Origin: Candidatus Woesearchaeota archaeon
Lineage (GTDB): Archaea; Nanobdellota; Nanobdellia; Woesearchaeales; GW2011-AR9
Reading direction: 5' to 3'
NCBI GenBank assembly: GCA_018302605.1
Contig: JAGVZN010000021.1
Span: 14,157-78,156 of the forward strand
Length of the DNA: 64,000 nucleotides
Part shown: in pieces, positions 3,351-37,596 of the stretch
Position numbering within the stretch: the first letter of the stretch is position 1
How the letters are laid out: each line of letters opens with the position of its first letter
Translations under genes and position numbers: made by a program
Notes under the pieces: model-generated
Told to the model about the DNA's origin: nothing
The model's input: the letters and a program-made list of their open reading frames with translations, nothing else
The model's database searches: none

Positions 3351-3402
3351 GGCAGACAGGGCGGACAGTAACCGAGCAACGCGAGATGGTTTCATATTAG
3401 CC
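3351..3402. repeat. solo terminal arm of repeat family 1
   Basis: cagtaaccgagcaacgcgagatggtttcatattagcc matches the reverse complement of 5661-5700 (ggctaatatgaaaccctctcgcgttgcttggttactgcc). Confidence 0.7.
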
Positions 3403-3464
3403 CTCCACCACCAAAAACTTTAATAACCAGCAAGGCCATTCGCGAACAGAGAGGGGAAACATTC

Positions 3465-4097
3465 ATGGTGAAAACATTTTTTCGGAGATTTTTCAGAAGA
3501 GTCAATCCGTTCAGCAAACGCAGCAACATGAAAGTCGGGCTGTACGGACCACCCAACGGGGGCAAGTCCACTTTGGCCAACCGCATCTGCCTGGACTGGC
3601 TGGGAGAAGAGATGTCCAGCGTTTCCCATATCTCTCACGAAACCCGGGAGATCAAGATCAAAGAACAAGTCACGATCAAAAACAAGAAAGGCAAGGAATT
3701 GATGTTCTCGCTGGTTGATACACCGGGGATTGCCACCCGGATCGATTATGAAGAATTTCTGCGCAAGGGAATTAAGAAGACCGAGGCGAAGAAACGGGCA
3801 AAGGAAGCGACAAAAGGAGTCATTGATGCCATTAAATGGCTGGATAACATGGACTTCGTTGTTGTCGTCCTGGACGCGACCAAAGATCCTTACTCCCAGG
3901 TCAATATCACGATCATTGGAAATCTGCAGGCACGGAACATCCCAGTCCTGATTGCGGCCAATAAGATCGATTTGAACAAAGCCAACATGGATGCGATCAA
4001 AGCGGCCTTTCCCCAATACGGGATCGTCGGCATTTCCGCCAAGTACGGCAAGAATATCGAAGATTTCTACGAAAATCTCTTTAAACTGGTGAAATGA
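3465..4097 (+). CDS. small GTP-binding protein (archaeal predicted GTPase)
   Basis: P-loop GPPNGGKST, switch DTPGI, NKID G4 motif; alternative start at 3528 (MKVGLYG). Confidence 0.7.
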   Translation: MVKTFFRRFFRRVNPFSKRSNMKVGLYGPPNGGKSTLANRICLDWLGEEMSSVSHISHETREIKIKEQVTIKNKKGKELMFSLVDTPGIATRIDYEEFLRKGIKKTEAKKRAKEATKGVIDAIKWLDNMDFVVVVLDATKDPYSQVNITIIGNLQARNIPVLIAANKIDLNKANMDAIKAAFPQYGIVGISAKYGKNIEDFYENLFKLVK

Positions 4098-4136
4098 ACG
4101 AGAGATCTTGGAGAAGTCCGGCGTGCTGTGGTGTAG

Positions 4137-4177
4137 TAATTGTTTAGCAGATACAAGCTAGAAGGGCTAAACAATTA
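4137..4177. terminator. hairpin taattgtttagc-N17-gctaaacaatta after the GTPase gene
   Basis: 12-bp perfect inverted repeat immediately 3' of the stop at 4097; stem sequence resembles the family-2 TIR (tttgtttagc). Confidence 0.35.
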
Positions 4178-4236
4178 GGTAGAGCATAAAGATTTAAAAA
4201 TGATAAAAGTTTCCTTCCTTTGATAAAAGAGGTACT

Positions 4237-4644
4237 ATGGTCACATTTCAGTTTGTTCCTTATCAAGACATTGAAACACTCACTTCTGCCAAACGGATCA
4301 ACAAGTTAATGAACATCGTCAAGAGTGATCGGATCGTGATCATGGAAGGGCGCCTGCGCAAAGAGGAAGAAGCCGATCTGATCGAGATCACGATGGAAGA
4401 GATCGGCTCCCGCTTTCGGGGGATCGAGTTGAGCGTGATTTATCCCGATAAGACAAAATTAGATGCGTTGCAAAAATTACGGGGCATGTTCGCCAGCTTT
4501 CTGCTCGGCAATCGGCAGGGATTGACGATCATCGGGCCGGCATCGATCGTCAAGCGGATTGAGAAAGATCCCGATAAGATCGAGCTGTTTACCAAAGATA
4601 CAGTTAATTTACCCCGCAACCGCAGTAAGCGAAAGAATAAATAG
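4237..4644 (+). CDS. conserved archaeal protein (DUF2073-like), GTPase operon partner
   Basis: 135 aa, co-directional in the GTPase / Zn-ribbon triad; family assignment is from memory of the conserved archaeal neighbourhood, not a search. Confidence 0.45.
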   Translation: MVTFQFVPYQDIETLTSAKRINKLMNIVKSDRIVIMEGRLRKEEEADLIEITMEEIGSRFRGIELSVIYPDKTKLDALQKLRGMFASFLLGNRQGLTIIGPASIVKRIEKDPDKIELFTKDTVNLPRNRSKRKNK

Positions 4645-4659
4645 GAGTACTTCTTCTCA

Positions 4660-5049
4660 GTGGACATGCCACACCAATGCGTCCGCTGCAGCACGCTGTT
4701 CCCTGACGGAGCACAGGAGATTCTCAAAGGCTGCCAATGCGGCGCGCGGCTGTTCTTTTACATCAAGAAGAAACAGATTGAAGAAGGCAAGGAACTGATC
4801 AGCAATCTTTCCGTTGAAGAGAAAAAACAGATTGAAACAGACATCGCCGAGATCATGTCTATCAAGGAAGAAGATCCTGATCGGCCGGTTGTGCTGGACA
4901 TCGAAGCAATCCGCGTCTTGCAGCCGGGAAAATATGAATTGGATCTGGTGCACCTATTTAAGAAAGACCCTTTGATTATCAAGTTGGAAGAGGGGAAGTA
5001 CATGATCGATCTGGGGCAGTTGTTTAAAGAGAAGTTTGAAGACAAATAA
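4660..5049 (+). CDS. Zn-ribbon protein (DUF2072-like)
   Basis: N-terminal HQCVRC-x13-CQCG four-Cys ribbon followed by an acidic coiled region. Confidence 0.5.
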   Translation: MDMPHQCVRCSTLFPDGAQEILKGCQCGARLFFYIKKKQIEEGKELISNLSVEEKKQIETDIAEIMSIKEEDPDRPVVLDIEAIRVLQPGKYELDLVHLFKKDPLIIKLEEGKYMIDLGQLFKEKFEDK

Positions 5050-5102
5050 TTGAATTATTCAAACTTCTCTAAACAAATACCAGAAAAAGAAAAATCCATT
5101 AT

Positions 5103-5615
5103 TCACATCTTGCTCTTCTGCGCCTTATCCGAAATAATCGCACTATTACCTGAAGGATCCTCAAGAATTATTTTTATTTTCTCCCGGCCAACCAAAGCCC
5201 GGTTTAATTTCTTAATCAGATTGCGCGCTTTTTCTTTGGCGCCGTCATCGTCTTCGGCATTCAGAGAAGATTGAATTACCGCTTTGACTCGTTCCAAAAC
5301 TCCTTCCACATTGGTGACATAGCCATCGGACGCCGGACCGGATTCCACCGTGATGATGTGGGGAATCTTTAATGTAGCTTCGCCGGATTTGACTACTTTG
5401 ATACTGAGATCTTCCTCAGATTCCACTTCCAGCGTGTACTTGCAGGGATCTTTGCGTTCTGCCGGCTCTACATCAGATTTGCGGGTGCCACAGGCAGCGC
5501 AATCCATGGATAGAACAAAGACCCGCCCAAAGTAAGGGATGTCCAACTCCTCTTCTTGGAGAGTGCATTTTTTTTCACTGCAGAAAGGACATTCCTGATT
5601 TTTTAATTCTGACAT
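5103..5615 (-). CDS. ZPR1-type zinc finger protein
   Basis: CPFCSEKKC-x22-CAACG zinc finger plus ZPR1-like body; start taken at MSELKNQ (5615), 27 nt downstream of the TATA-like gtttaaaaaca; the tracked ORF extends to 5723 over the repeat. Confidence 0.65.
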   Translation of the reverse strand: MSELKNQECPFCSEKKCTLQEEELDIPYFGRVFVLSMDCAACGTRKSDVEPAERKDPCKYTLEVESEEDLSIKVVKSGEATLKIPHIITVESGPASDGYVTNVEGVLERVKAVIQSSLNAEDDDGAKEKARNLIKKLNRALVGREKIKIILEDPSGNSAIISDKAQKSKM

Positions 5616-5637
5616 TGGACGGTTAAGTCGAGGTGTG

Positions 5638-5646
5638 TTTAAAAAC
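5638..5646 (-). promoter_or_regulatory. TATA-like box for the ZPR1 gene
   Basis: tttttaaac on the minus strand about 25 nt upstream of ATG 5615; suggests a leaderless transcript. Confidence 0.4.
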
Positions 5647-5660
5647 ATTTCGTGGGAAAA

Positions 5661-5824
5661 GGCTAATATGAAACCCTCTCGCGTTGCTTGGTTACTGCCA
5701 GCTCCGCACTTGCTGTAGAACACAATCAGCGACGTTCCCCGTAGGGGGCAACCCCCTTGTCGCTTTGATATTTCTATCGAGAATGCTCCGCAAAGGGCAG
5801 TAACTACAGGGTTTCATATTAGCC
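5661..5824. mobile_element. MITE-like element, repeat family 1 (164 bp)
   Basis: 17-bp perfect TIR ggctaatatgaaaccct / agggtttcatattagcc; flanked by gtgggaaaa / gtggaaaat (putative TSD); GC-rich internal hairpins (ccccgtagggggcaaccccc). Confidence 0.6.
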
Positions 5825-5941
5825 GTGGAAAATATACTACCTGCTTCTTAACGTGTCGTGTCTTCTAGATGTTAAGAGAAGTTTGAATAATTCAATTATT
5901 GATCTCCAAACTTCTCTTAAAGAACAGAAATATTCATAAAC

Positions 5942-11387: not shown

Positions 11388-12710
11388 TTATTCACGTCTA
11401 AACTCTTTAAACTTCTCCCCAAATACCTGCAACCCCGATGTCGATAACATCGCTTGACTATTACCAAACTGAACCATTGTCGGCTGTGGCAAGCCCTGTG
11501 CTAACTGTTGTAATGCCTGTTCCATCTGAGTAACCCTTGATAATAACTCCCTTTCTCTCTCTTGTGCTCTTTCGTCTATTCGAATTCCTGCTTCTAATGT
11601 AAGCGGAGACTTACATCTATCACAAAAGATGAGGATACTTTGATTTTGAAAATTACACCGTGGACAAATGCGAGGTTTTAATACATCCTCTTTTTCAGTA
11701 GTTTTCGGTTTAATTCCCTCTACTTCACAGTAAGCATCATCGATGTCCTTATCGCTGAGCTGGAGATAAACGCCCTCTAATGTTCTCGTTGTAATGCCAT
11801 GCCTTTTGGCATTCTTGACCAAATCAAAGCCCCTCCTTTGAAGATCCGTAATCGCAAAGTATCTTCCCATATGCCAGAAGAGATTTTTCTTGATTTCTGC
11901 ACGTTCCGCAATTCTTCGAATAAAAGCAGTATAGCCAATGGGTGACAGTTTCCTTGCAAACCAGCCGCCTTGTTCTTTACCAACAAATAAGGGTGCATCT
12001 CCATTCTTCCTGTCGGGATGATCTTTGTTAATCCACTCGCGTAAATACGGTACAGCTCGAACTAACCGAACAGAGCGTCGCTGAGATTTTGATACTTCAA
12101 TCCACACTTTACAGCCCATTTCGTCAAATTCAACATCGCTAAGCTTAACATTTGCAATCTCGTTAGCTCTACAACCCATTTCCACCCAGACCATAATCAA
12201 TGCTCGATCTCGATTACAGGAACAAATAGTAAGCATTCGCTCGATATCCTCAATAGTTGGCAAATCTGATGGCTTATGAGTTCCTTTAATCCTCTCCGGC
12301 TTTAATCGTTCATCTTCTACAACTGCCGGAAAGCCAGAACGCTCTTTAAATTGGTACAACCACTTGTAAAAAGATCGAATTATCACTTTTTTCACAGAGC
12401 GTGAAGAATCTGTTCTCACGTTACCAACAAATTCAATGATTTTCTGCTTATAAGCCTCAATCTCGGTATCGATGGGTTTAAACGGCATCTTGAGGGATAA
12501 GCCAAGTTCTCGGAGGCACAAGAGGGTATTGCGAATGGTCGAGGTTTTTATCCTACCACCGCGACTACTTGGCTTGTTTTCCAAGTACTCTTTAAAGAGG
12601 TTAAGTGCTTCCAACTGTTCCACAGAGAGTTTACCCCTCCATTTCGAGTTATGATGACCTTCGTCGAAGCCATTGGTCAAAATCTTCCTAATTTCTTCTT
12701 CTGAACCCAT
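11388..12710 (-). CDS. tyrosine recombinase / integrase with C-terminal zinc ribbon
   Basis: Catalytic region HMGRYFAITDLQRRG-x18-Y; arm-binding and core-binding regions; C-terminal CPRC-x13-CDRC ribbon and a coiled coil not present in archaeal XerA. Confidence 0.8.
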   Translation of the reverse strand: MGSEEEIRKILTNGFDEGHHNSKWRGKLSVEQLEALNLFKEYLENKPSSRGGRIKTSTIRNTLLCLRELGLSLKMPFKPIDTEIEAYKQKIIEFVGNVRTDSSRSVKKVIIRSFYKWLYQFKERSGFPAVVEDERLKPERIKGTHKPSDLPTIEDIERMLTICSCNRDRALIMVWVEMGCRANEIANVKLSDVEFDEMGCKVWIEVSKSQRRSVRLVRAVPYLREWINKDHPDRKNGDAPLFVGKEQGGWFARKLSPIGYTAFIRRIAERAEIKKNLFWHMGRYFAITDLQRRGFDLVKNAKRHGITTRTLEGVYLQLSDKDIDDAYCEVEGIKPKTTEKEDVLKPRICPRCNFQNQSILIFCDRCKSPLTLEAGIRIDERAQERERELLSRVTQMEQALQQLAQGLPQPTMVQFGNSQAMLSTSGLQVFGEKFKEFRRE

Positions 12711-16749: not shown

Positions 16750-17382
16750 ATGGTTCTGATCTTTGATTATGATGTTAGACAGGCGTTGAAAGATATTCAG
16801 ATTGTTGAACAGAAAGAGTTTGTCATCTCTGAACAACAACGCGAGAGCATGATCGAAGTATATGGCAAAGCCAAGTGGGCAGTCGTCGATATGTTGAATG
16901 AGCGATATTCTGCCCAGCAGGAAACACCTTTCGATCTCCACCACTGGCTTTCCGGAAATGAAGAAGATGAGGTGGCCTATTTTCTCAACGAAGCCGGCTC
17001 GAATGCCTTGAATTATGCAGAAGCGGGTGCGCCAGCAGCATTCCATCTCTGGCTGGGAAAGAAAGGATTTGTCATCGGCATCGAACAGCAAGGTGCGGGC
17101 TTTGATGCCAGACGTGTTCATCAGCTGCGGATTGCTCAGCATCAAGGCGGCGGATTTGATTTCTTCCGGAAATGCCAAGGGATCGTATTTTTTGACAAGA
17201 AAGAGAAAGCGAAAGTAATATATTTCCTGGGGAGAATCCAAAAGCATGATCGATCTTTTCAAGCTGATCGGAGCATTAGGGATTATGCTGATCTCCATTG
17301 GGATCGTCACCAAAAAGAGAAAGATACAGGATGTTTATTATATTCTGGTATTTGTTTAGCTTTTCTGGCTGGCCGTGAGTGA
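16750..17382 (+). CDS. GHKL-type ATPase domain protein (anti-sigma-factor / histidine-kinase-like ATPase)
   Basis: N-box NEAGSNALNYAEAG; G-boxes GFVIGIEQQGAGFD; last about 12 codons overlap a family-2 element. Confidence 0.5.
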   Translation: MVLIFDYDVRQALKDIQIVEQKEFVISEQQRESMIEVYGKAKWAVVDMLNERYSAQQETPFDLHHWLSGNEEDEVAYFLNEAGSNALNYAEAGAPAAFHLWLGKKGFVIGIEQQGAGFDARRVHQLRIAQHQGGGFDFFRKCQGIVFFDKKEKAKVIYFLGRIQKHDRSFQADRSIRDYADLHWDRHQKEKDTGCLLYSGICLAFLAGRE

Positions 17383-17511
17383 GAGCGGAAAATTGGTCGT
17401 GTTCTCCGCTTCAAGACAAGTCGTGGCTTGAACATTTTCCGCACAATAATCTTTAGCATAAAGCTCTTGTCTCACTCACATCTTGGCCCAGCCACCAGCT
17501 AAACAAATACC
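17347..17511. mobile_element. MITE-like element, repeat family 2, copy A (165 bp)
   Basis: TIR ggtatttgtttagc / gctaaacaaatacc; long internal imperfect hairpin (gtgagtgagagc / gctcttgtctcactcac). Confidence 0.6.
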
Positions 17512-17695: not shown

Positions 17696-18724
17696 ATGAA
17701 CTACATCATCAAACATCTCCCCGAAGATTTCATCGTCAAAGAGATCAGTCGCATCACTCCGCAGAAACAAGGCAGATACTGCTATGTCCTCCTGCGCAAA
17801 AGACAGCGGAATACGCTGGATGTGGTGCAGGAGATAGCCAGACAATTACACACTAAAGAAAAACAGATCGGCTTTGCTGGAAGCAAAGATCGGCAGGGAA
17901 TAACGGAACAGGTGATTTCCCTGGCTGGAACGGGAAAAGACAAGATCGCTGCGCTGAACCTGCGTAATGCCGAATGTGTCATCCTCGGCTATGGGAATAC
18001 GCCAATTACTTTGGGTGATCTGCAGGGAAATGCTTTTGAGATCGTCGTCCGTGATCTTCAAGAAGACATGGAGAAAGAGAATTTGGGCTTTTCCCCGTTT
18101 CTGGAAAACTATTTTGATGAACAGCGCTTTTCAACGCAGAATGTAGCGGTGGGGAAAGCCTTGATCCAAAAAGATTTTGCCGGAGCGGTACGATTGATCT
18201 CCAACACGGTCGGCCTTGCCCATCTCGACGACCATCCTGCTGATTTTGTCGGGGCATTGAAAAAAGTTCCTAGCCGCTTATTGCGGATGTACGTTCATGC
18301 GTTGCAAAGTGCGTTATGGAATCGGACGGCTGCTGCCTATTTGCAGCGGAAAGGCATACTGGAAAAGAGTATTGATTATTCGCAGGGAAAATTAGTGTTC
18401 GTGAAAGATACGCAAAGACTTTTGGGGATAAACATTCCGTTGGTTGGCTTTGGTGAACTGCCAACGGACGATGATGAAATCAAAGAGATTATCACCAGAT
18501 TATTGACTGAAGAAAAAATAGAGCAAAATAATTTTGTGATCAAACAAATTCCGGAATTGACTGTTGAAGGAGAGCTGCGTCAGTTGATCGTGCCAATAGG
18601 GAATATTGAAATCGGCAGCATCGAAGACGACGAAATATTTTTCGGGAAGAAAAAAATGAAAGTCTGCTTCACTTTGCCTAAGGGCAGTTACGCGACGATG
18701 GTTGTCAAGAAGTGGTTTGGGTAA
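17696..18724 (+). CDS. truD: tRNA pseudouridine synthase TruD/Pus7
   Basis: 342 aa; catalytic GSKDRQGIT (G-x-KD) motif typical of the TruD family. Confidence 0.65.
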   Translation: MNYIIKHLPEDFIVKEISRITPQKQGRYCYVLLRKRQRNTLDVVQEIARQLHTKEKQIGFAGSKDRQGITEQVISLAGTGKDKIAALNLRNAECVILGYGNTPITLGDLQGNAFEIVVRDLQEDMEKENLGFSPFLENYFDEQRFSTQNVAVGKALIQKDFAGAVRLISNTVGLAHLDDHPADFVGALKKVPSRLLRMYVHALQSALWNRTAAAYLQRKGILEKSIDYSQGKLVFVKDTQRLLGINIPLVGFGELPTDDDEIKEIITRLLTEEKIEQNNFVIKQIPELTVEGELRQLIVPIGNIEIGSIEDDEIFFGKKKMKVCFTLPKGSYATMVVKKWFG

Positions 18725-18736
18725 TGAAACCCCGAC

Positions 18737-18900
18737 CGGCTCTGGAGAAAAAGTCCTCCTGGTCATTGACCGCGGTGAAAACCAATTGTATTCAATGTTG
18801 CAGAACCAGCCATTTGATCTGATCGTTTTCGCACCTGTTCCCGGAGATCGCTTCCCCCGGTCAATCTTCAGGCCGGGCGGACGACTTTTTCTACTAGGCC
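18737..18900. mobile_element. MITE-like element, repeat family 3, copy 1 (164 bp)
   Basis: TIR ggctctggagaaaaagtc / gactttttctactaggcc; flanked by aaacccc on both sides; about 80% identical to the 21485-21647 copy. Confidence 0.6.
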
Positions 18901-18947
18901 AAACCCCACAGAATATTTATAAACTCTCTCTTCGTCAACAGAAAGAG

Positions 18948-19262
18948 ATGGAACAAAATAAAATTACCAGCCAAGAACGCTATATCGCCGCTTCTGCCTA
19001 TCTGTTTGATCTGGGCTATACGATAGCATGGTTAACCCAAGCAGAGTCTGATTTTACTCGATTCCATTTTGAACAAGAAAATAAAATCATCAAAAGAGTC
19101 CTCCTTCCGGGGCTCGCTGTTTTGTTTGGCGGAATTTTATGGGAAAGTATGGCTTCCAAGTACTTGATCTATGCCGGCGTGCTGATCGTTATTGTTTCCT
19201 TTTTCTGGATGATGGTTGGAGCATGGCATGCTTTAAAAGGCCGCAAGAAAAAAGTGATCTGA
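18948..19262 (+). CDS. small membrane protein
   Basis: Start taken at MEQNKITSQ (18948); the tracked ORF from 18702 translates the repeat element; 2 TM helices at the C-terminus. Confidence 0.4.
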   Translation: MEQNKITSQERYIAASAYLFDLGYTIAWLTQAESDFTRFHFEQENKIIKRVLLPGLAVLFGGILWESMASKYLIYAGVLIVIVSFFWMMVGAWHALKGRKKKVI

Positions 19263-19294
19263 GCGAGAAATAGGACGGTGTGAAACCCCAAAAA

Positions 19295-19450
19295 GTATTT
19301 GTTTAGCTGGCGGCAAGGCCAAGCGGTGTATCCGCAGAGACTTTGTTCCTAGCTAGATGCGGAAATCTTCTGGTTCATTGCGGGAGGCAGAAAATATCTT
19401 TGCTGATTTCCGCGCGGATACACGGTCAGCCGGAAAAGCTAAACAAATAC
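19295..19450. mobile_element. MITE-like element, repeat family 2, copy B (156 bp) with 9-bp target-site duplication
   Basis: TIR gtatttgtttagc / gctaaacaaatac; flanked by direct repeat ccccaaaaa (19286-19294) and ccccaaaaag (19451-19460); internal hairpin ggtgtatccgc / gcggatacacg. Confidence 0.7.
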
Positions 19451-19495
19451 CCCCAAAAAGTAAGCTTTTTATAGGATAGATCTTCTTTCTCTGCT

Positions 19496-20581: not shown

Positions 20582-20691
20582 TGAGCCTGCCCGGATTCGA
20601 ACCGGGGTCCTATGGTCACTTCTGCCGAAGCAGCCGAAGCCATATGTCCTATTTGCCTTATTTGCTCCTATCCAGGCTAGACTACAGGCCC
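20582..20691 (-). tRNA. tRNA-Arg(TCG) with two introns (D-arm about 19 nt; canonical 17 nt UUCG hairpin)
   Basis: Minus strand GGGCCTG-TA-GTCT-AGCCTGGATA[intron]GGAC-A-TATGG-CTTCGG[CTGCTTCGGCAGAAGTG]A-CCATA-GGAC-CCCGG-TTCGAAT-CCGGG-CAGGCTC-A; A20 and G37 fit Arg / CGN decoding. Confidence 0.6.
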
Positions 20692-21372: not shown

Positions 21373-21484
21373 AGTGGCCGGCTGTGCCATCCCGTTTTTC
21401 GGTGTAAGATGTGATTCTCTCGAATCGTTGTTTTCGAGCCGCATCTTGACTATGCCAGCCCTGAACTAAATATGTGTGTCAAAC

Positions 21485-21647
21485 GGCTCTGGAGAAAAAG
21501 TCTCCCTGGCCATTGACCATGGCGAAAATCGGCCGTGTTCATGGCTACAAAATCGGCGATTAAAGTGGCTGGTTTTCGTACCTGTTCCCGTATATCGCTT
21601 CTCACGGTCAATCTTGAGGCCTGGCGGACGACTTTTTCTACTAAGCC
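21485..21647. mobile_element. MITE-like element, repeat family 3, copy 2
   Basis: ggctctggagaaaaagtc ... gactttttctactaagcc; flanked by tcaaac on both sides; the tracked ORF 21476-21667 is its translation. Confidence 0.6.
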
Positions 21648-21719
21648 TTTCAAACAGAAACATTTAAAAATAACAACCATTTCTCATTACCCACAAGAAG
21701 AGGAGTAAATCTTTCTCGG

Positions 21720-28855: not shown

Positions 28856-28968
28856 GCCAGCGTCGCATAATCCGGTATTGCGCAGGTCTTGAATCCGCAT
28901 TCTGATTTCAGAACGCAGCACATCAACCTGTCCCTCTGGGATTCCCGGTTCGAATCCGGGCGCTGGCG
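28856..28968 (+). tRNA. tRNA-Ser(TGA), class II, with 31-nt canonical intron
   Basis: GCCAGCG ... CGCTGGC + G73; 3-bp D-stem; anticodon stem CAGGT / ACCTG with loop CTTGAA[intron]A; 13-nt variable arm TCCCTCTGGGATT; T-arm CCCGG-TTCGAAT-CCGGG. Confidence 0.7.
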
Positions 28969-36651: not shown

Positions 36652-36770
36652 AGTTGGTCTGTCATTCGGGACCCGTTTCTCGTTCTCAGCAACTTGGAAT
36701 TTCTGAAATTGAATGGGCCCACCCGGATCTTGAATCACTTGCTCGAACCGGATATCCTCATTTCGCACTG
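36650..36770. repeat. tandem duplicate of the tRNA-Val 3' region plus about 75 nt of 3' flank
   Basis: Minus-strand ccggttcgag[caagtgattcaaga]tccgggtgggccca-ttcaatttcagaaattcc ... cgggtcccgaatga repeats 36771-36850 directly downstream of the intact tRNA; this copy has a 14-nt insertion in the T-loop. Confidence 0.7.
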
Positions 36771-36823
36771 CTCATTCGGGACCCGTTTCTCGTCCCTAGC
36801 TACTCGGAATTTCTGACAATGAA

Positions 36824-36978
36824 TGGGCCCACCCGGACTCGAACCGGGGATCAACTCGGTTTTTAATACGATTCTGTTGATGTTCAACAAAGCCGTGCAT
36901 GTAAACGAGTTGTCATATGCAGCGCAAGCTGCGACCAAAAAAGATCGCTTTTTTGCGTAGCCGCTAGACCATGGGCCC
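36824..36978 (-). tRNA. tRNA-Val(TAC) with two introns (D-arm about 42 nt; canonical about 40 nt)
   Basis: GGGCCCA-TG-GTCT-AGCGGCTA[intron]TGAC-A-ACTCG-TTTACA[intron]C-CGAGT-TGATC-CCCGG-TTCGAGT-CCGGG-TGGGCCC-A; TATA tttataaaag about 26 nt upstream. Confidence 0.65.
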
Positions 36979-37015: not shown

Positions 37016-37384
37016 TTATGTCTCTTTCCCGATCAACGCTTCCAATTCGGAACGGGCCAGAACCGGCCGAAAAGCACCTCTAAATTCTAAGAGCAATGGT
37101 CGAGTTTCGGGGATGTTAGGATTAAACAATTCGATATTTAATTTGGGATGATACACACTTTTTTGAGTTAGAAGAGCATAAAAGTTCTCCCCCGTTTTAT
37201 CTTGTTCAAGCCTTTCTTTTGTTTCTCTGTCTACGGCAAACCAGATTCCTTCGCCATTGCCGGAATGATATTTTTGCCAGGTGCGGGGAAGATTGCCTTT
37301 GATGAGAAAATATGTTGGTCCGTTATCAATGGCTTCTTCATAGATTTGAGTCCATTCATCAATAGAGTATGAGCGATTTTCCAT
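37016..37384 (-). CDS. hypothetical protein
   Basis: 122-aa ORF. Confidence 0.45.
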   Translation of the reverse strand: MENRSYSIDEWTQIYEEAIDNGPTYFLIKGNLPRTWQKYHSGNGEGIWFAVDRETKERLEQDKTGENFYALLTQKSVYHPKLNIELFNPNIPETRPLLLEFRGAFRPVLARSELEALIGKET

Positions 37385-37420
37385 TATACCTGAAGTTTTC
37401 GTCTCTACTTTAAAAATGTT

Positions 37421-37596
37421 ATTGGTGCTTCTGGCTCTGTAGAAAATCTCAAAAAAGTCAGCCTGGCCGTTGCCTTCGTGCTTCTCTAGATGCTTAGACT
37501 GTAGTTAAGAAGCACCAATAACTTCAGTTTATTGTAGTTCTCAGGCAACCTCTTGGCCAGGCGGCTGACTTTTTCTACAGAGCTGGTGCTTCTCCA
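37421..37596. mobile_element. MITE-like element, repeat family 3, copy 3
   Basis: ctggctctgtagaaaa ... agtcagcctggcc paired with ggccaggcggctgactttttctacagagc; outer arms ttggtgcttc / gaagcaccaa. Confidence 0.55.

Follow-up and report, generated by a model that had tools for sequence, protein, structure and literature searches.

Three copies of a short repeat with inverted ends lie scattered through a 64-kb stretch of Candidatus Woesearchaeota DNA, from a groundwater DPANN archaeon, which we refer to as the window. They raise the question of whether such repeats are mobile DNA or a structured RNA family, and of what governs the places where they sit. An earlier, sequence-only reading had taken them for a mobile element with terminal inverted repeats and target-site duplications, and had named compensatory base changes at syntenic positions as the sign of an RNA family instead.

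Three copies of one element in the window

The window encodes, among other proteins, TruD, a NYN-domain protein, proteasome beta, FttA/aCPSF1 and a nucleoside/AMP phosphorylase-like protein. A TruD identical to that of the window carries the name Candidatus Woesearchaeota at NCBI, and Rifle-type groundwater metagenomes contain the same population. We found three element copies of 152-163 nt with terminal inverted repeats, all on the plus strand and all within short intergenic spacers (Table 1), which agrees with the three copies originally reported. The window has three occurrences of the right-end 24-nt signature GGCCNGGCGGNNGACTTTTTCTAC, where 0.00 are expected (100 shuffles, 0 matches), and the 18-nt end occurs six times, forming three inverted pairs.

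Copies 1 and 2 share 79% identity over the whole unit of 163-164 nt, close to the 80% first estimated, while copy 3 belongs to a second subfamily that has only the terminal ~45 nt on each side in common with them. The left end described for every copy, GGCTCTG(G/T)AGAAAAAGTC with its complement at the right, was recovered in all three, but the left inverted repeat of copy 3 is interrupted by a 9-nt insertion (GGCTCTGTAGAAAA-TCTCAAAAA-AGTC), so that the start of this copy differs literally from the 18-mer. Alignment of the copies, which had been proposed as a check, fixed the exact limits and a duplication length of 9 bp. The limits first given for copy 2 were exact; copy 1 begins at 18738 rather than at 18737, and the range 37421-37596 assigned to copy 3 was too wide, having taken in both 9-bp target duplications and a few extra bases.

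The element family also explains a spurious annotation. As had been suspected, the ORF at 21476-21667 and the N-terminal extension of the ORF at 18702-19262 are read across the element. The sister counterpart of the latter gene is only 104 aa long, its start corresponding to the ATG at window position 18948, and a search of 5.8 billion proteins for homologues of the 76-aa ORF across copy 2 returned only the ORF itself.

Table 1. Window coordinates of the three element copies, their target duplications and the adjoining predicted promoter motifs
Feature	Position	Strand	Description
MITE copy 1	18738-18900	+	Subfamily A, 163 nt; between TruD stop codon (18722-18724) and promoter of 104-aa ORF; site empty in sister MAG
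Copy 1, left target duplication	18729-18737	.	Decayed, ACCCCGACC; empty site of the sister is AACCTGACC
Copy 1, right target duplication	18901-18909	.	AAACCCCAC
BRE-like AGAATA and TATA box of 104-aa ORF	18910-18923	+	TATA box TTTATAAA, starting 15 nt from element end; ATG at 18948
MITE copy 2	21485-21647	+	Subfamily A, 163 nt; between NYN-domain gene and proteasome beta subunit gene
Copy 2, left target duplication	21476-21484		Decayed, GTGTCAAAC
Copy 2, right target duplication, then GAAACA and TATA box	21648-21670	+	Duplication TTTCAAACA; TATA box TTTAAAAA, 15 nt from element end, upstream of proteasome gene (ATG 21729)
MITE copy 3	37433-37584	+	Subfamily B, 152 nt; spacer between divergent genes
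Copy 3, left target duplication	37424-37432	.	GGTGCTTCT, perfect 9 bp
Copy 3, right target duplication	37585-37593	.	GGTGCTTCT, perfect 9 bp
AATAACA and TATA box of 122-aa ORF	37408-37423	-	TATA box TTTTTAAAG, starting 16 nt from left end of element; start codon 37384
Copy 3 neighbour, 122-aa ORF	37016-37384	-	
Copy 3 neighbour, nucleoside/AMP phosphorylase-like gene		+	

A dispersed family with three subfamilies

Copies were collected from the window, the sister MAG and groundwater metagenomes, using exact-match signature scans. In a scan of one genome per GTDB species the signature was present in one organism only, the Woesearchaeota MAG JACQNE01, where it occurred on 11 contigs; the three additional matches were bacterial and due to chance. 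The metagenome scan yielded genuine copies at 16 loci, some of which were duplicates, together with two chance matches, and a scan of viral contigs for the terminal inverted repeat gave 0 matches. Pattern matches at loci L005, L007, L012, L015 and L021 were discarded as bacterial or other non-element sequence, being chance matches in unrelated DNA. Including further copies detected by BLAST within the fetched loci, and after removal of duplicates, the family comprises 28 non-redundant insertions in three subfamilies, drawn from the window (3), MAG JACQNE01 (at least 9) and groundwater metagenomes (17).

Subfamily A (~163 nt) includes copies 1 and 2, subfamily B (~152 nt) includes copy 3, and subfamily C is distinguished by the ends GGCTTTGTGTAAAAAGT. 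Elements measure 151-164 nt, or 171-244 nt where the left end is longer or inserts are nested, some B copies with a nested insert reaching 244 nt. The imperfect inverted repeats of ~18 bp extend into ~45 nt of subterminal complementarity, and the elements have no coding capacity. Copies sit at unrelated loci: they have no flanks in common with the window, save for one unrelated 641-nt stretch in L010 that is far from any element, and the 11 scan-found copies of the sister MAG occupy other loci than those of the window.

Several copies carry further insertions. The long B variants (L018:9444-9687, L019:5210-5453 and L031:5916-6159) contain a nested insert of ~92 nt, apparently flanked by TA, and an A copy (L013:3769-4011) contains one of ~81 nt, which suggests that a still smaller mobile element enters these elements. 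At L022:3039-3190 a non-orthologous B copy occupies a target, GGTGCTTGG, that is near-identical to that of copy 3. The 15 nt to the left of copy 3 (GTTATTGGTGCTTCT, 37418-37432), comprising its target duplication and 6 nt beyond, are the exact reverse complement of 37507-37521 inside copy 3; no shuffle reached the score of this match, and the motif otherwise occurs only inside B copies. We considered whether copy 3 had landed in an old inverted B remnant, but only these 15 nt match.

Target duplications, an empty site and the RNA alternative

Target duplications of 9 bp are perfect in 11 of the 28 insertions and match at 8 of 9 positions in seven more, so that 18 of 28 match at 8 or 9 positions, and the duplication is exactly 9 bp wherever it is measurable. 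Perfect examples outside the window include TTTTCACGC, CAATACACC and TTTCCGTTC. The flanking repeats AAACCCC and TCAAAC, which had been noted beside copies 1 and 2, are present, but they are decayed 9-bp target duplications rather than just short repeats. The first reading had missed the 9-bp length, the perfect duplication at copy 3 and the fixed relation of the copies to promoters described below.

The proposed check for insertion polymorphism revealed an empty site. In contig JACQNE010000006 of the sister MAG (L040), which encodes a TruD of 86% identity, 48 nt separate the TruD stop codon from the same 104-aa gene. The junction reads TGA-AACCTGACC-GAAGA-TTTATAAAC, as the window sequence would if the element and one copy of the target were taken out. 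As the TATA sequence of the window site, TTTATAAAC, is already present at the empty site, the promoter is older than the insertion. Near-identical strains showed no presence/absence polymorphism at copies 1 and 3, all such contigs carrying the elements. For copy 2, gene order past the NYN gene is not conserved in L040 and L043; for copy 3, orthologues of the neighbouring genes were absent from the fetched loci.

Features of the fold might instead be read as those of a structured ncRNA or a cis-regulatory hairpin family, such as a terminator, an insulator or a 3' UTR element. All three window copies are on the plus strand, between plus-strand genes or beside one, and they fold more stably than shuffled sequences (z = -3.3, -4.3 and -5.6). 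In addition, the T5 tract at each end could serve archaeal RNA polymerase as a terminator. However, a hairpin fold is expected of any element with long inverted ends, and Rfam returned no match on any copy, either at the gathering threshold or at E <= 10. In our 22-sequence alignment, double compensatory changes occur at seven of the 29 consensus pairs of the terminal stem, so that the changes named beforehand as the mark of an RNA family do exist. Nearly all of them trace to a single event, the divergence of subfamily A from B, and two inverted ends bound by a transposase would be expected to show them just as well; the syntenic positions named alongside them are absent. The 9-bp target duplications and the empty orthologous site likewise speak against an RNA family, as does the presence of both orientations relative to the adjacent promoter: 14 insertions turn the right end towards the TATA box and 8 the left end (p = 0.29). 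Copy 3, moreover, lies between two divergent promoters, where mRNA should not cover it.

The empty site and the non-shared flanks together rule out a syntenic RNA gene, and we regard an RNA family of any of these kinds as extremely improbable. The mobile element originally proposed is supported by the dispersed copies, the 9-bp duplications and the empty site of copy 1, and the three repeats are MITEs, not RNA genes. The finding as first written is correct and ordinary in kind; the MITE family itself is new, and also ordinary in kind.

Insertions abut predicted BRE/TATA promoters

In 27 of the 28 insertions, the start of a TATA-like 8-mer lies 13-17 nt away from one end of the element, and the distance is exactly 15 nt in 13 of these 27. 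Random intergenic positions in the same loci meet this rule in 18% of cases (P = 2e-19 for 27/28), where the TATA definition and the distance window are the analyst's choice and 'intergenic' in the null model is ORF-based and crude. The rule was drawn up from the first 14 copies, nearly all of which had a TATA-like box at 15-17 nt from an end, and was on record before any metagenome locus had been retrieved. Among the 17 new non-redundant metagenome insertions, the box lay at 15-17 nt in 13 (P = 2e-9) and at 14-17 nt in 15 (P = 6e-11), both measured against random intergenic positions. A copy in L031 has neither a duplication nor a nearby TATA, and in L029 the distance is 12-13 nt.

Toward the box, the flanks follow a common pattern in which a 9-bp duplication ending in C is succeeded by RAAA-nn-TTTWWAAA. 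In the target logo, C occupies duplication position 9 in 19 of 27 insertions and is followed by R, A, A and A (A at +4 in 25 of 27), two unspecified positions and TTTWWAAA, while the other side of the duplication carries no sequence signal. Judged by its sequence, this pattern is the predicted BRE/TATA layout of an archaeal promoter. A weaker version of it, with C at -7 and an A-rich stretch from -6 to -3, precedes the TATA-like boxes of 113 other genes in these loci.

Downstream of the box, 23 of 28 insertions have the start of an ORF of 50 aa or more at a distance of 25-64 nt from the TATA (mode 29-33 nt), a spacing consistent with that expected for leaderless mRNAs. The element lies ~46 nt upstream of the start codon and leaves the promoter intact. 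This promoter-anchored position is unusual and statistically solid, and a search of a limited full-text collection retrieved no report of an archaeal MITE, IS or transposon positioned relative to the core promoter (BRE/TATA).

A second MITE-like family in the same loci

Another MITE-like family, which has the ends GTATTTGTTTAGC, a length of 158-165 nt and flanking repeats of ~6-8 bp, is present in the window at 17347-17511 and 19294-19451, the latter copy being syntenic with one in the sister MAG. Single ends of this family occur at ~4135 and 5069-5081. It is also represented at L040:8419-8668, and the loci contain eight copies beyond those of the window. A TATA-like box at 13-15 nt from an end was seen in only three of eight copies.

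Target choice and survivorship

A position so close to promoters could arise by choice of target or by loss of insertions elsewhere. A DDE transposase supplied in trans would bind both ends of the MITE, excise or copy it, and insert it into target DNA across a 9-bp staggered cut. The insertions are not scattered through intergenic DNA: the 9-bp target abuts the upstream edge of the BRE/TATA, with its last base as the C at -7 from the TATA box. In our preferred reading, the transposase or its complex would recognise the promoter, whether by reading C-RAAA-nn-TTTAWAAA directly or by sensing DNA bent and occupied by TBP/TFB.

The opposing explanation holds that this is an ordinary MITE with near-random insertion, and that survivors are found only just upstream of the BRE, the sole neutral DNA in a compact DPANN genome. 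It draws support from copy 1, where the TruD stop codon and the BRE are separated by no more than the target itself. At five sites, including those of copies 1 and 3, 0-10 nt of ORF-free DNA lie upstream of the target. Prokaryotic MITEs are as a rule ~90% intergenic (PMC11602168), and the second MITE family is also in some excess near TATA (3 of 8 copies). At many other sites, however, 50-500 nt of ORF-free DNA was available upstream and the insertion still abuts the BRE, and the 18% of intergenic positions that fit the rule contrast with the 27 of 28 insertions observed. The spread of 13-17 nt, with nearly half of the distances at a single value, is sharper than any harmless spot would produce, and the rule holds for every copy with a perfect duplication, copies that are presumably young. 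In L017, a B copy inserted at the same position beside an older A copy, its duplication including the last 3 nt of A, and five of the eight copies of the second family persist at other intergenic positions.

A simpler combination, in which a preference for the RAAA half-site acts together with intergenic survival only, predicts 10% of sites and was rejected (P = 4e-23). The failure of this model, the free upstream DNA, the re-use of the L017 position and the behaviour of the second MITE family favour target choice, and purifying selection alone does not seem sufficient for the pattern; we consider near-random insertion with survivorship improbable. Since only fixed insertions were sampled, the genomes are compact and some sites had no other room, targeting is inseparable here from very strong selection.

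That these elements form a non-autonomous DNA transposon (MITE) family of Woesearchaeota, with IS903-like ends and a transposase that, itself or through its complex, recognises the promoter, is in our view likely. A narrower version, in which the transposase would be guided by the archaeal pre-initiation machinery, docking on promoter DNA bent and bound by TBP/TFB and cutting at the upstream edge of the BRE, is a tentative proposal with a reasonable chance of being right but a greater one of being wrong. The hairpin of the elements and their T5 tracts in both orientations might also shield promoters from read-through transcription.

Transposase affiliation

Both the sequence of the ends and the 9-bp stagger suggest a source in the IS903 group of the IS5 family. 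The MITE inverted repeat GGCTCTGTAGAAAAAGTC matches the IS903 inverted repeat GGCTTTGTTGAATAAATC at 14 of 18 positions, both being ~18 bp long with a GGC start, and the first eight bases of subfamily C are those of IS903. We verified the reference in plasmid Rts1, where IS903B has GGCTTTGTTGAATAAATC and its complement as its ends and is flanked by the 9-bp duplication GACACAACG; the IS903 end sequence sits at IS903B ends in more than 5000 plasmids. Within the IS5 family a 9-bp duplication is specific to the IS903 group, and the MITE shares it. In a Paracoccus survey, the IS903-group elements listed all make 9-bp repeats, and the IS427- and IS5-group ones make repeats of 2-6 bp (Table 2, PMC3281130).

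The target of IS903 is a preferred palindrome, WTTYA-N9-TRAAW (PMC2577343). The MITE target does not conform to it, only one flank being informative, but RAA at +2 to +4 after the duplication is common to the MITE target and the IS903 half-site TRAAW. The MITE further differs from the IS903 group in its DPANN host, its one-sided BRE/TATA target, its ~45 nt of subterminal complementarity and the lack of a transposase found with it: tblastn with the IS903B transposase against all fetched archaeal loci (~0.6 Mb of DPANN sequence) gave nothing below E = 1, and neither the window nor the fetched loci contained a longer element with the same ends or with any long inverted repeats. As the fetched loci hold no IS903-type transposase, the group is assigned from the ends and the duplication length, from which the family is probably of IS903-group (IS5 family) origin.

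The same two observations, an IS903-type transposase missing from the fetched loci and an asymmetric target unlike that of IS903, would suit a transposase from outside the group, be it one of the families whose ends start with GG and whose duplications are 8-9 bp, such as ISL3, IS1595 (ISPna2 group, ends GGCnnTG), IS256 or IS4, or an undescribed archaeal family. GGCTCT-type ends occur also in the ISL3 and IS1595 families, but duplications in these two families are 8 bp, at odds with the invariable 9 bp of the MITE. The agreement with the verified IS903 repeat, the identity of subfamily C in its first eight bases and the shared RAA half-site also run against such a source, which we judge unlikely while still allowing it some weight.

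One transposase gene was considered as a partner. L027 carries a gene with DUF772 and DDE_Tnp_1 domains, the only DDE_Tnp_1 gene found, and we traced its homologues and their contigs. It was rejected, as its element is a distinct IS5-group IS, bounded by GAGAAGTTTGCA and inserted inside a B copy. This IS (L027:10195-11460, transposase about 305-308 aa) recurs in L049-L054, and its relatives, named Nanoarchaeota IS5-family transposases, are very common as groundwater-metagenome contigs of 1.1-1.8 kb.

Other features of the window

Genes for the origin-associated proteins OapB (4237-4644) and OapC (4660-5049) lie among long inverted repeats in 3361-5921, where 3361-3415 pairs with 5648-5702 and 5024-5084 pairs with 5861-5921. 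On this arrangement, 3361-5921 is a candidate for the chromosomal replication origin region. Intron-bearing tRNA genes were recognised at 28856-28968 (plus strand), ~20589-20690 (minus strand) and ~36840-36975 (minus strand). ARAGORN reported 0 genes and Rfam one tRNA of 113 nt; in the two additional tRNA-like genes, long introns that appear to be non-canonical or multiple interrupt the acceptor and T arms. A direct repeat of 66 nt, with 89% identity between its copies at 36662-36727 and 36772-36837, duplicates the 3' end of the adjacent tRNA gene and the sequence downstream of it, and looks like an att-site scar left by an integrated element. A gene for a tyrosine integrase is located at 11388-12710 (minus strand).

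Discussion

Small size, lack of coding capacity, terminal inverted repeats with target duplications, intergenic location, multiple copies and a narrow taxonomic range are traits that this family has in common with prokaryotic and archaeal MITEs. It differs from them in its fixed core-promoter position, which our limited literature search did not find reported for any archaeal MITE or IS. The closest analogy in function is Ty3, which integrates at RNA polymerase III start sites via TFIIIB (TBP together with the TFIIB-related Brf1). Like the MITE, Ty3 lies at a fixed distance from the site of a TBP/TFIIB-type factor, in either orientation, and leaves the promoter functional. Ty3 is a eukaryotic LTR retroelement that uses an integrase and inserts at the start site, whereas the element described here would be a DDE cut-and-paste MITE upstream of the BRE, for which tethering is hypothetical. 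Among prokaryotes, IS elements that target repeated palindromes (REP) have been described (PMC1525189). They resemble the MITE as transposable elements with a strong preference for one short class of intergenic sequence, but the MITE target is a promoter motif and not a REP hairpin.

A census of MITEs lists a Woesearchaea genome among the archaea with the most MITEs per Mb (PMC11602168). The present family is itself a cause of contig fragmentation in these DPANN genomes: public assemblies break near its copies, several contigs ending just after TruD. Short public contigs break within or beside copies in L037-L039, L059 and L060.

Even if selection alone placed the survivors, the insertions mark ~27 BRE/TATA promoters and a leaderless-type spacing, with ~30 nt from TATA to ATG, in uncultured Woesearchaeota. 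If the position reflects targeting, the family would be a rare prokaryotic case and, to our knowledge, the first archaeal one of a transposon that reads core-promoter architecture. Such targeting would amount to a safe-harbour strategy for a parasite of a ~1-Mb genome, and could offer a possible handle for directed insertion beside archaeal promoters. Should the transposase prove to be tethered to the promoter, the family would represent the first such DNA transposon in archaea, an analogue of Ty3 and TFIIIB, and a natural promoter marker in uncultured DPANN.
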